Positions 52,519 through 55,703 of a DNA stretch of 64,000 bases are shown in pieces. The stretch covers positions 320,001 to 384,000 of the forward strand of contig CAXXTH010000017.1 of assembly GCA_963668025.2 (NCBI GenBank), in the 5' to 3' direction. The stretch is from Candidatus Hydrogenedentota bacterium (GTDB lineage: Bacteria > Hydrogenedentota > Hydrogenedentia > Hydrogenedentales > SLHB01). The translations under genes were made by a program, and so were the position numbers. The notes beneath the pieces are model-generated. The model saw nothing but the letters and a program-made list of their open reading frames with translations. It was not told where the DNA came from and did no database searches. The first letter of the stretch is position 1, and each line of letters opens with the position of its first letter.

Positions 52519-54087
52519 TTAGCGTTTCCGTGCAGCCCTGCGAGCAGCGATAACACCCAGCCCAATACAGGCCAGCGCAATGACACATCCGCTGGCGGCA
52601 GGCAAATCACCTGCACTATCCACTTCGAGCGTATATGAAGCGCTTTGGACGCCGGTGCCATCATTGAAATATACGGTATAAACGCCGGCATCACCCGTCT
52701 CGATAGAGGTAAACGACAACGTCTGGGAATTCGTTCCCGTTACACGCGGCGCATCATCGGACAGCACCTCACCATCTTTCTCCCAGTGATAATCCGTAAC
52801 ACTGGCCGGGCCAGTCAAGGTGAGCGCTCCACCGGCAACAACCGGGTTCGCGGGATCCGCAGTGATTTCATACGCAGCGGCGACGCCTTGCGAGCCCGCC
52901 CAGGTCTCTGCGCTATTGCCGCTGCTATACGTAGCCGCTACGGAAGTATCGAGCAGTTTGTAGTTCCCTGCCGCCGCATCCACATATAGTGGATCGCTGA
53001 CGTCTAATGCGGTCCAATGCGCACCTGGATCTACGCTTGCAAACTGAAACTCACAATCCTGGAACACGTTATAGTCGTTCGTTATTGTTCCACCAACACC
53101 CCAAGGATCCCAGCAAGCGACGCCTGGATTGATTCCGTAGAAAACAGAATCGGTTAGAACCACGTTCGACTGCCCCGCTAGCATGATGCCCCGAAGGATG
53201 CCCTCAGCTCCTATGGTTTTTACAAAATCACAGTTATCGATGGTGATGTTGGGCACGACAGGGGGGCAATCACCTGGGCGAACCATCACGATGTCCGTGC
53301 CGGATGGGGGCGTGGCCTTAATGAGACACCGATTCATATTGATGTTGATCGTGGTTACCACATCCCAGAGATTAAATGTGCGAATTCCATATCCCGCATA
53401 ATGAACGATTTCACAATCATTCATCGTCAAATTTAGCGCCTCATAAGTGCCAGCAAGATAAAGGGCCATTCCTGTAGCGCTGGCTTCGATCAGGCAGTTA
53501 TTGAAGACAGCGCTGCCGCCCAAGCTGATGACACCAAAATTGTTCCCTTTGATTGTGCAGTTGTTAAAGGTGTTGGTGCTTCTATTGATTTGTCCAATTG
53601 CAGACTCAACATTTTGGCCAGGATCAAACTCGCAATTCTCGAATGTCGTATTATCGCCGAACCTGCACTCAACAATAAAAGACCAGGGTTCAGGACCATC
53701 GCCATTTTTGTCTATTGATTGAAAAATGAGGTTGCGGATGATGCAGCCATTGGGATAGCCGCCAAATGCGAGTGTACAGACGCTATCGCCTCCCCCTTCG
53801 ACAGTGTATCCTCCCTGGCCAATGATAGTAGGTCGGGGATCGAGGCTGGGCGCTCCTTCCAGCGTCACCACTTTATTAATGAGGATGGTCTCTGCGAATG
53901 GAGCGCTATTGTCGATAATGCGAATGGTGTCGCCGGCTACCGCCGCCGATAATGCATCAGTGACACTTGAATATTGGCCAAAGCCAGGCGTGTGCGTCAC
54001 TTCAAGTATGGCGGCATTTGCGGGGGCAAGTGCCAACATTCCAGCGCATAGAATCACCATGACCAAAGAAAATCGCAGAATGCTCAT
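52519..54087 (-). CDS. Secreted right-handed beta-helix protein with Ig domain and C-terminal LPAA-TM-basic tail
   Basis: Signal peptide; AVAGDTIRI and repeated (F/M)xNCx motifs; YHWEKDG...DAGVY Ig motif; GDLPAASGCVIALACIGLGVIAARRAARKR tail. Confidence 0.85.
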   Translation of the reverse strand: MSILRFSLVMVILCAGMLALAPANAAILEVTHTPGFGQYSSVTDALSAAVAGDTIRIIDNSAPFAETILINKVVTLEGAPSLDPRPTIIGQGGYTVEGGGDSVCTLAFGGYPNGCIIRNLIFQSIDKNGDGPEPWSFIVECRFGDNTTFENCEFDPGQNVESAIGQINRSTNTFNNCTIKGNNFGVISLGGSAVFNNCLIEASATGMALYLAGTYEALNLTMNDCEIVHYAGYGIRTFNLWDVVTTININMNRCLIKATPPSGTDIVMVRPGDCPPVVPNITIDNCDFVKTIGAEGILRGIMLAGQSNVVLTDSVFYGINPGVACWDPWGVGGTITNDYNVFQDCEFQFASVDPGAHWTALDVSDPLYVDAAAGNYKLLDTSVAATYSSGNSAETWAGSQGVAAAYEITADPANPVVAGGALTLTGPASVTDYHWEKDGEVLSDDAPRVTGTNSQTLSFTSIETGDAGVYTVYFNDGTGVQSASYTLEVDSAGDLPAASGCVIALACIGLGVIAARRAARKR

Positions 54088-54190
54088 GACTAAAATCCTC
54101 CCTTCCAAGTTATGGTTTCTGTGGCCTCATACATTGGTAAAGCCGTCTTCATCGAGCCTGCCCGCTCAAAGAAAATAGCAATCACCCATA

Positions 54191-54326
54191 CTTACACGTG
54201 CAAGTTAATCGTAATATACGTTAGTTCATTCTTGATGTCAAGAGGGTACTTTAGAGAATCTGAAAAAGCATCTTGACAACAGGGTTAAAATGAGATATAT
54301 TACGCCTGAGCTTACACGTGTAAGCT
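54191..54326. promoter_or_regulatory. Back-to-back twin sigma70 promoters, each followed by a palindromic operator CTTACACGTG(C/T)AAG
   Basis: Minus strand: TTGACA 54241-54236, TATATT 54218-54213, operator 54191-54204. Plus strand: TTGACA 54273-54278, TATATT 54296-54301, operator AGCTTACACGTGTAAGCT 54309-54326. Confidence 0.85.
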
Positions 54327-54611
54327 GATTGTCGATGCGTTTTGACAGAAGAGAGAACTCGTTAAAAGGGACCTAACTTGCACCAATGCCGCTTTTTTGA
54401 ATGCTTAGATTTATTCTAAGTATGCCGAAGTTTTTTGTTTATCGATATGTTACGGATCCTTATTGCGTTTGCAGAATACCTATCTTACATATAGGCCCGT
54501 AGGAGAGGAAAATTGCTTGCTTCGTAACGTCAGATTTCGTGCGTCATTATGTCTCGAAGAAATTTTGAATAATAGGAATGAGGGGGCATTTTAAATATAG
54601 GAGGAAATGGT

Positions 54612-55703
54612 ATGCGCCAAAATAGCACTAAACACAGCAGTGGTTTCACGTTAATTGAGTTGCTTGTGGTAATTGCGATCATCGCGATTCTAGCAGCCAT
54701 ATTACTGCCTGCGCTCGCACGAGCGCGGGAAGCCGCACGGCGGGCAAGCTGCCAATCCAATCTGAAACAATGGGGCATTATTTTCAAGATGTATGCCGGG
54801 GAGAACAAGAGCGGGTATTTCCCTCCCAAACAGCAATATAGTAATTATGACTGGTTCATTCCGATGGGTGTTGGCGCGCATGAATTGTTTCCCGACTACT
54901 GGAATGACGCCAGCATCGTAGTATGCCCTTCCGACCCGAGGGGTGTCGGCAACAACCCGTTGGCCACCGGCGCTTCCGAGTACTTTTATATGCCGGAAGA
55001 TATCGGCGAGGCAGTGCGAAATGTTGACACCAGCGTGAATCCTGAAGTGGCTAAGGTTTGCCAAATGACCTTGTTGTCCAATCCCACTTCTTATCTCTAC
55101 ACGCCATGGGCCGTACAGACAATGGCGCAATTGTTTGACATCATGTGGCTCGAAGCAGGATGGGCCGGTGTCTACAAAGAAGTGACCGGTGAAACCTATC
55201 CATATCGGGTAGCCTTGTGGCCAGGAGGGGCTGGTAGCGTCGTAGAAAAAGTAGGATGCCCCGCTACATGGCTCTTCATCAATTACTTGCCCTACATAGG
55301 TGAAAAAGATATCACCTCCGACTGGCTCGCCATTGGCGGCTACCGCAATAACCGCGCCAGTGCCGATGAAGATGGCGCTGCACTTCCCTCCCAATATTAT
55401 AAGCTGCGCGAAGGGATTGAGCGGTTTTTCATCACGGATATCAACAATCCCGCGTCAGGCAGCATCGCCCAAAGCCAGTTGCCCGTCATGTGGGACGCAT
55501 GGTCTGAAAATGAGAACACCGCCAATGACTCCGCTATTGTATATTTCAACCATGTGCCCGGCGGAAGTAATGTTCTTTATGTGGATGGACACGTCGAGTT
55601 CGTGCGTTTCGGCTCAAAATTCCCGATACATGTGCCAGAGGACGGAATTTCCATACTCGAAGATTGCCCTGGACGGTTGAACCTATTCGGAGGCTGGGGT
55701 TGA
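54612..55703 (+). CDS. DUF1559 prepilin-type N-terminal cleavage/methylation protein with H-X9-DG motif
   Basis: [76 protein letters not shown]. Confidence 0.93.

Follow-up and report, generated by a model that had tools for sequence, protein, structure and literature searches.

A 64,000-nt stretch of DNA from a Candidatus Hydrogenedentota bacterium (hereafter the window; C17:320001-384000 of a 24-contig, 6,145,620-base genome that is 93.75% complete) carries, between two divergent genes, a mirror-image pair of promoters, each followed by a CG-centred palindrome. One promoter faces a gene for a secreted beta-helix surface protein and the other a gene for a prepilin-type DUF1559 protein. Our analysis indicates that this twin cassette probably consists of two sigma-70-type promoters that point away from each other and belong to a single small sugar regulon of the LacI/GalR type, which a repressor encoded on another contig (C9) would control in trans. 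The proposal is built on observations, namely the motifs, their restriction to a few sites in the genome and the constant spacing of their parts, the families to which the genes belong and the statistics of gene neighbourhoods. Joint action of the two envelope proteins is a separate suggestion, which we regard as possible rather than probable.

Twin divergent promoters and the four predicted operator sites

On the plus strand, TCTTGACA (54271-54278) is followed after 17 nt by TATATTACG (54296-54304) and after a further 6 nt by CTTACACGTGTAAG (54311-54324). The minus strand repeats this order with TCTTGACA (54243-54236), 17 nt, TATATTACG (54218-54210), 5 nt and CTTGCACGTGTAAG (54204-54191). An earlier examination of the window from its letters only (the sequence-only reading) had claimed such a TCTTGACA-N17-TATATTACG-N5/6-palindrome arrangement in both directions, with operators about 120 bp apart just past the predicted starts. 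Both statements were borne out: the blocks are present exactly, the two motifs exceed their shuffled expectation, the palindromes lie 8-9 nt beyond the -10 boxes and their centres are 120 bp apart (~11.4 helical turns by arithmetic). From the predicted sigma-70-type promoter of the DUF1559 gene (54271-54304, plus strand) transcription would start at about 54308 and give a leader of ~300 nt, and from that of the beta-helix gene (54210-54243, minus strand) at about 54206, with a leader of ~120 nt. The putative DUF1559 operator is a perfect 18-bp palindrome (54309-54326, plus strand) around the 14-bp core, 9 nt past the -10 box; the putative beta-helix operator (54191-54204, minus strand) is one mismatch away from a perfect palindrome and lies 8 nt past its -10 box. 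The 14-bp core is centred on CACGTG.

In the window the palindrome pattern matched four times (two sites, each on both strands); shuffled sequence gave 0.29 matches on average, and a count of four was never reached in 100 shuffles. For the promoter pattern, three matches were found vs. a shuffle mean of 0.03, two of them exact and the third, at 7533, with 3 mismatches. In a generic promoter scan of the window the twin promoters ranked first, each with 11 of the 12 consensus positions. Across the genome TTGACA-N17-TAnnnT occurs 173 times vs. ~47 by a rough uniform-composition estimate, an excess from which sigma-70-like promoters appear to be in use in this genome. When the twin blocks were compared, the -35, -10 and palindrome boxes were identical at 30 of 31 positions and the 17-nt spacers at only 8 of 17 (manual count); box identity with divergent spacers argues that the mirror image consists of shared functional elements and not of a recent inverted duplication. 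Contigs of four sequencing runs contained identical same-strain pieces over part of the intergenic region and fragments elsewhere, and the operators showed no informative variants in them; no RNA run was listed among the runs that contain the stretch.

Searching the genome for the 14-mer with at most one mismatch revealed only four places, the two in the window, C9:147138 and C24:41292. At looser match the next-best site had two mismatches and lay apparently inside coding sequence, followed by 45 sites with three; the combined promoter and operator pattern, with four operator mismatches allowed, returned the same four sites and no others. Common to all of them is TTGACA, N17, TATATT or TACATT, 8-9 nt and then the palindrome. 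With transcription starts predicted ~7 nt past the -10 box, the palindrome would span approximately +3 to +17 of each transcript; sites over or just after the transcript start are classical ones for a block to RNA polymerase.

The C9 site heads a LacI-family gene for 352 residues (C9:145958-147016, equal to L001:9959-11017, minus strand). Its product matches the LacI helix-turn-helix (HTH) domain PF00356 (45.6 bits, cut-off 27), Peripla_BP_3 PF13377 (116.7, cut-off 26.5) and Peripla_BP_1 PF00532 (48.4, cut-off 22.2), and its hinge, YVPNELARSL, resembles the usual LacI-family hinge. None of the named NCBIfam equivalogs was reached, the best being RbsR at 155.7 bits (cut-off 382). The third copy of the palindrome, in the same promoter geometry, precedes a LacI-family gene, and we therefore read the palindrome as a LacI-family operator; self-control is typical of this family, and an even-length palindrome with a central CG is a hallmark of LacI/GalR operators. 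Taken as sequence evidence, these features support the assignment of the palindrome as the operator of a small LacI-type regulon with a candidate repressor in trans. The sequence-only reading had anticipated a LacI-family operator under a trans-acting regulator, which agrees with the copies found ahead of the LacI-family gene on C9 and of an alpha-galactosidase-like gene on C24, and the genome scan that it had proposed was run and yielded the four-site regulon. For its further idea of DNA looping no support was found. The Peripla_BP_3 match of the C9 regulator occupies residues 176-343 of 352, and the nine residues remaining after this sensor domain leave no room for a tetramerisation helix; together with the ~11.4-turn spacing, this makes looping by a LacI-type tetramer unlikely.

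Behind the regulator, on the same strand, follow genes for a RhaT-like transporter, a DUF6786 protein, a galactonate-dehydratase-like enzyme, a class II aldolase, an LsrF-like aldolase, an SDR, a PfkB kinase, a KDPG-type (2-keto-3-deoxy-6-phosphogluconate) aldolase and a cyclase-family protein. The dehydratase belongs to the enolase superfamily and is closest to galactonate dehydratase, at 271.7 bits, which is under the curated cut-off of 311. The gene headed by the C24 site encodes a protein of 847 residues that has a signal-peptide-like start, an NPCBM domain and a GH36 (Melibiase) domain. Its closest solved relatives are alpha-galactosidases (2xn0, E 1.7e-28), and its NPCBM part is like 2vmg; we take 2vmg/2vmh to be galactose-binding CBM51 modules. 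Past the operator, the leaders are unusually long, at ~300 nt, for the DUF1559 gene (54325-54611) and the GH36 gene (C24:40999-41291) and measure 120-140 nt for the other two units. Outside the operator, no word of 9 nt or longer is common to the four leaders. The DUF1559 leader has no Rfam match at E 1 or better, and its folding energy is ordinary (z = 0.19). About 65 nt into this leader an isolated operator half-site, TAACTTGCAC (54374-54383, plus strand), is complementary at every position to 54198-54207. It may serve as an auxiliary site or have arisen by chance; by our estimate ~0.05 such occurrences would be expected in a 321-nt stretch.

The two envelope proteins and their surroundings

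The beta-helix gene (52519-54087, minus strand; ATG at 54087 preceded by GGGAGGA) encodes 522 amino acids that start with a signal peptide. The AlphaFold model of the protein (predicted local distance difference test, pLDDT, 78.4; predicted template modelling score, pTM, 0.72) has a right-handed beta-helix at about 27-378, an immunoglobulin-like (Ig-like) domain at about 409-489 and a terminal helix at 498-521. The 27-378 region consists of serial short strands with pLDDT mostly 80-94, and the model clearly predicts a right-handed parallel beta-helix (pectin lyase fold). Pfam searches gave weak matches to Pect-lyase_RHGA_epim, DUF5123 and Ig, and PF13229 was found as a precomputed match. With Foldseek, 54 PDB entries were matched at E 0.001 or better (E 7e-6 to 1e-3); among the matches listed nearly all are pectin methylesterases, pectate lyase Pel9A, a PL6 lyase and phage tailspike depolymerases, and these fold matches are generic (TM-score 0.24-0.55, 10-17% identity) and too distant for active sites to be mapped from them, so that the head may be an enzyme or a binder. 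The family is rare, with five proteins at E 1e-5 or better among 5.8 billion, two of them from the same genome. A terminator-like hairpin with a T-run (52376-52393, minus strand), which was found by a consensus scan only, lies ~125 nt past the stop codon and suggests that the beta-helix gene is transcribed as a single-gene unit.

At its C-terminus the protein reads DLPAAS, a hydrophobic stretch and then RRAARKR. This tail pattern was detected in 47 open reading frames (ORFs) of the genome, a few of them doubtful, and most read (D/E)LP[AV][AS]G or near variants. We take the LPxAG-type tail to resemble the VPLPA-CTERM motif; an NCBIfam search of the 522-residue protein gave no family at E 0.01 or better, PEP-CTERM and VPLPA-CTERM included. 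The genome encodes a single exosortase (PF09721, 207.5 bits; TIGR02602, 161.6 bits, cut-off 105.55), which could not be assigned to a subtype (XrtA 174.6, cut-off 208; XrtD 163.4, cut-off 400) and whose gene adjoins a PrsT-like tetratricopeptide repeat gene. No sortase was found in the 93.75%-complete genome. Judged from its sequence, the tail would be an exosortase-like variant. The secreted beta-helix/Ig protein with an anchor tail that the sequence-only reading had described is present, with its signal peptide, beta-helix, Ig-like domain and hydrophobic/basic tail.

The DUF1559 gene (54612-55703, plus strand), with AGGAGG 8 nt ahead of its ATG, encodes a 363-residue protein. Its type-IV-pilin-like DUF1559/H-X9-DG character had also been recognised from sequence, and all signatures exceed their curated cut-offs: PF07963 N_methyl (35.8 bits, cut-off 21.2), PF07596 SBP_bac_10 (42.2, cut-off 23.3), TIGR02532 (30.9, cut-off 16.3) and TIGR04294 H-X9-DG (26.7, cut-off 19). 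Against the equivalogs GspG (33.7 bits, cut-off 88.85) and PilA (34, cut-off 400) the N-terminal helix alone matches. At 50 bits or more, 76 DUF1559 ORFs were counted in the genome, together with one prepilin peptidase, seven secretin matches and at least seven full-length GspE/PilB-type ATPases; none of the neighbours annotated in 48830-59174 is a type II secretion or type IV pilus machinery gene. A single-chain model of the 363-residue protein (7-row alignment) was too poor for use, with pLDDT 39.8, and the co-fold of beta-helix residues 25-490 (7-row alignment) with DUF1559 residues 36-363 (47-row alignment) scored 0.00 vs. a mark of 0.32, which is neutral as to binding.

The three closest paralogues of the DUF1559 protein (68-73% identity) are encoded in tandem at L058 (C6:64000-82000; local 2256-10260, minus strand). 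They come first in an operon that also encodes an SDR, an AraA-like isomerase, an FGGY kinase and a DeoR regulator, and no transporter is evident among its annotated genes. The third of these paralogues lacks ~60 N-terminal residues.

Further genes lie beyond the beta-helix 3' end. An extracytoplasmic function (ECF) sigma factor (50230-50826, plus strand), a probable anti-sigma factor with a weak DUF3379 match (50823-51461, plus strand) and a 241-residue protein without family (51458-52183, plus strand) are encoded by overlapping, operon-like genes (50230-52183) that converge on this end. The earlier statement that no regulator is adjacent holds for LacI-type genes and fails for this ECF sigma/anti-sigma pair, whose genes are the sole regulator genes adjoining the two envelope genes. 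The ECF sigma factor was considered as a controller of the cassette and rejected, the twin promoters being sigma-70-type with 11 of 12 consensus positions.

Elsewhere in the genome, a generic screen for C-terminal anchors showed one canonical PEP-CTERM tail (VVPEPAS..., C3:118138-118947, plus strand) vs. ~45 tails of the LPxAG type, and the single full exosortase probably serves a non-PEP motif. At C18:151534-162004 (minus strand) four paralogues of ~500 residues, three of them contiguous, end in near-identical PILPLAAG...WRARRM tails. They adjoin a partial match to exosortase (C18:149949-150185, minus strand), weak at 24.4 bits, which lies within an open frame of 501 residues; this match and the four paralogues may represent a dedicated sorting enzyme with its substrates.

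Recurrence of the pairing, the proposed mechanism and its rivals

Results of the neighbourhood analysis showed that DUF1559 genes are associated with tail-bearing proteins throughout the genome. Within 600 bp of a DUF1559 ORF we found 17 of the 47 tail-bearing ORFs; random placement put 1.9 there on average and at most 7 in 500 trials. Twelve of these pairs have the DUF1559 gene followed by the tail protein gene, four have the reverse order and one, the window pair, is divergent, so that 16 of 17 are co-directional and operon-like, with gaps of 38-415 bp. The heads of the tail partners vary, some being beta-helix or DUF5123-like and many having no Pfam match, and each partner carries a PASTA, TSP3 or Ig stalk ahead of the tail. 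The sequence-only reading had proposed counting how often DUF1559 genes pair with tail proteins and twin operators: the pairing recurs, and the twin operators do not, as the window pair is the sole divergent one of the 17 and the others are tandem. A screen for palindromes and promoters upstream of the other 16 pairs gave nothing convincing.

A quick DUF1559 tree was built from 71 of the 76 ORFs, five having been dropped with fewer than 250 residues after trimming. On this tree the 17 paired genes need 13 label changes, at least nine of them forced by well-supported branches; in label shuffles the mean was 15.5 changes, and 31 of 500 shuffles were as low as 13. The pairs are scattered over the tree and are thus not copies of one duplicated module.

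LacI-type genes showed a similar association: 10 of 28 lie within 1 kb of a DUF1559 gene, where random placement put 1.2 on average and never more than 5 in 500 trials. A tail-bearing ORF is also found within 3 kb of five of these ten genes, including a case on C19 with the gene order LacI, DUF1559, beta-helix paralogue; the C19 beta-helix homologue (C19:61603-63096, 32-33% identity) is placed directly behind the DUF1559 gene. The link of DUF1559 to LacI-type regulators and exosortase-tail proteins is systematic in this genome. We conclude that the window pair is a variant of a common LacI/DUF1559/tail cassette, with its candidate regulator placed with the catabolic genes instead. The LacI/DUF1559 intergenic regions examined contained one good operator candidate and little else. 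This is a CG-centred 20-bp palindrome with one mismatch (C10:1278838), located between a divergent LacI-type gene and a DUF1559-then-tail-protein pair, and it is a candidate operator of another cassette.

Among eight tail-bearing homologues checked in relatives, a DUF1559 ORF lies directly upstream in G015 and G002; G013 has no DUF1559 within 435 nt, G040 no tail by pattern, and in G025, G028, G035 and G030 the contig or locus ended. The G015 case is a beta-helix homologue (34% identity) directly behind a DUF1559 gene. Two relatives, G007 and G027, were sampled by the loci best matching the window DUF1559 and not as whole genomes, and the LacI-then-DUF1559 order is present in both (2 of 28 and 1 of 13 sampled loci, respectively). 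For the nine best DUF1559 matches in other relatives, no tail-bearing neighbour was found within 1.5 kb.

In the mechanism that we propose, a dimeric LacI-family repressor encoded on C9 would bind the CG-centred 14-bp palindrome and block RNA polymerase. Each direction of the divergent pair would then need its own operator copy, hence the mirror image. In the presence of the inducer, probably galactose, an alpha-galactoside or an intermediate of the galactonate pathway, four promoters would open together and express four units: the regulator/catabolic operon, the secreted NPCBM-GH36 alpha-galactosidase-like enzyme, the beta-helix surface protein and the DUF1559 protein. The latter two would form the envelope part of a set for acquiring galactose-containing glycans. 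In such a set the beta-helix head may bind or cut the polymer at the cell surface, and the DUF1559 protein, processed by the single prepilin peptidase, may become the substrate-specific part of a type-IV-filament/type-II-secretion-like apparatus. A broader and speculative extension, which we would not rank as probable, is that DUF1559 proteins are plug-in specificity subunits of a type-IV-filament machine in the envelope that resembles type II secretion, each sugar-gated LacI/DUF1559/tail cassette serving one glycan and the DUF1559 protein delivering its tail partner to the surface or helping to reel in the polymer. The window pair would then be the galactose-glycan cassette, with its repressor relocated to the catabolic operon.

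Several observations weigh against this interpretation. The link between the C9 regulator and the operators is the one operator copy before its gene, in a genome with 27 other LacI-type genes, and the galactonate dehydratase assignment and the generic beta-helix matches have the limits given above. A paralogue of the beta-helix protein on C12 (61% identity) has neither the operator nor a DUF1559 neighbour. At the sampled DUF1559 loci of relatives a tail neighbour is rare, with 1 of 28 in G007 and, in G027, 0 of 13 by the strict and 2 of 13 by the loose pattern; LacI-type genes within 1 kb are scarce there too (2 of 28 and 1 of 13). None of 40 relatives has the exact 12-mer more than once, and of the four that carry it three also carry the reversed-pattern control; in the genome under study it has three sites and the reversed control none. 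Orthologues in G030 (50% identity for the beta-helix and 66% for the DUF1559 protein) are on different contigs that end in insertion sequence (IS) elements, and they have other promoter-proximal sequences. There, a different imperfect inverted repeat is found near each promoter, and no operator common to the two could be made out. The best relative of the C9 LacI protein has 37% identity, and no same-genus genome was found in the collections searched. A metagenome scan with the beta-helix protein returned 51 pattern matches, none of them a relative. From a genome-collection scan with the C9 LacI protein came just a relative at 30% and a match of 21 residues, neither of which could be used.

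Both G030 genes (L015, the end of C182, and L020, the start of C16) are located at a contig end beside transposase-like sequence. This layout would fit a possible IS insertion between a once-divergent pair.

Of the alternatives, we take seriously, without favouring it, the possibility that the regulon is as proposed and the beta-helix and DUF1559 proteins are nevertheless independent, their neighbourhood reflecting that both are common in sugar-regulated envelope clusters. Most DUF1559 genes indeed have no tail neighbour (59 of 76 in this genome, 27 of 28 in G007 and 11-13 of 13 in G027), the C12 beta-helix paralogue stands without a DUF1559 gene, and the closest DUF1559 paralogues sit with cytoplasmic sugar enzymes and not with a tail-bearing protein. 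Against independence speak the strong enrichment of 17 of 47 over 1.9, with 16 of the 17 pairs operon-like, the scatter of the pairs over the DUF1559 tree (13 changes, at least nine forced), and the distant beta-helix homologues in C19 and G015, each of which follows a DUF1559 gene. An improbable alternative is that the palindromes are operators of a regulator other than the C9 protein, either another LacI paralogue or an unrelated CACGTG-binding factor. The 27 further paralogues leave room for it, and the scans provided no C9 orthologue for footprinting (best relative 37%). Yet no regulator gene other than the C9 gene adjoins any of the four sites, the C9 gene has the site in its own promoter at the same spacing, and the even length and central CG are, as noted above, those of LacI/GalR operators.

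The remaining two explanations dispense with a repressor. A role of the palindromes in RNA, as 5'-terminal hairpins stabilising four mRNAs, would agree with the predicted starts, which put the palindrome at the 5' end of each transcript, and with the fold of the DUF1559 leader, in which it is drawn as a 7-bp hairpin at positions 2-19. We consider such a role very unlikely, since the four copies keep the sequence itself without compensatory changes, one copy heads a LacI-family gene, and the DUF1559 leader is neither unusually structured nor matched by an Rfam family. Hardly any credence can be given to the mirror image being a relic of an inverted duplication or of a miniature inverted-repeat transposable element (MITE) with no regulatory meaning. 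Two near-identical inverted blocks within 135 bp might suggest this origin, but identity is confined to the boxes, two unrelated loci each have one set of these boxes with identical spacing, and the genome contains no further copies; on these grounds we rejected it. The LacI/GalR-type regulon under the C9 repressor is the reading that we consider probable.

Comparison with known systems

DUF1559 is among the largest protein families of unknown function. It is described as the largest paralogue group of Planctopirus limnophila, with 68 copies, unknown function and two essential members (PMC10632474), and another paper calls it a putative solute-binding family responding to stress (PMC2754498). 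Different from such published members, the window DUF1559 has a predicted operator, a candidate repressor and a candidate sugar. The locus offers testable handles for one member of the family: a predicted 14-bp operator with four copies in the genome, a repressor candidate, a surface-protein neighbour and, as the likely sugar class, alpha-galactosides or galactose. In addition, the association with LacI-type regulators and tail proteins lies outside the Planctomycetes, in which the family was defined.

The closest parallel concerns Verruconatronum alginivorum, for which the sections of PMC13274419 considered here describe an alginate-induced cluster with a pulG-like pseudopilin that has 67 homologues, and a further pseudopilin over-produced on alginate; its authors link the pseudopilin to type II secretion of lyases. 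As in our case, a member of a large pseudopilin-like family is tied to polysaccharide-degradation genes. The two cases differ in phylum and sugar, and in that system the evidence comes from proteomics; those sections define neither an operator nor a regulon and describe no tail-protein pairing (PMC13274419). Apart from one 2026 proteome paper, the DUF1559 link was not found described in the literature searched. A term search of the Hydrogenedentota genome paper PMC10866078 found no pilin, pili, PEP-CTERM, type II secretion or galactosidase.

With PEP-CTERM/exosortase systems (XrtA; XrtD with VPLPA-CTERM) the window shares the order of motif, hydrophobic helix and basic cluster, found in ~47 ORFs alongside one exosortase. 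It differs in that the tail motif is (D/E)LP[AV][AS]G-like and not PEP, and that the exosortase falls below the named-subtype cut-offs. A likeness to the SusC/SusD loci of Bacteroidota, as a functional analogy only, is seen in sugar-induced envelope proteins accompanied by glycosidases and a dedicated regulator; the components here would instead be a pilin-like protein and an anchored beta-helix protein, and no TonB-dependent transporter or SusD-like gene was noted among the annotated neighbours in 48830-59174 or at the C9, C24 and C6 loci. Should the link reflect joint action of the two envelope proteins, it would point to a way of capturing glycans or displaying enzymes at the envelope that takes the place of SusC/SusD-type systems in a number of little-studied phyla.

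The regulatory part is most similar to the LacI/GalR sugar regulons (GalR/GalS, RbsR, PurR, CcpA). It has in common with them the LacI HTH and periplasmic-binding-protein-like sensor of the C9 regulator, the even CG-centred palindrome at or just past the transcript start with one copy in the regulator's own promoter, and targets that comprise a glycosidase, a transporter and catabolic enzymes. We know of no described LacI/GalR member to which the half-site CTTACAC could be assigned. Unlike in the classical regulons, DUF1559 pilin-like and exosortase-tail surface proteins are among the putative targets. We conclude that in its regulation the locus follows the ordinary pattern of local LacI/GalR regulons, and that what is new is the genome-wide association of LacI-type, DUF1559 and tail-protein genes and the predicted wiring of a DUF1559 protein and an exosortase-tail protein into a four-promoter regulon of the galactoside type.

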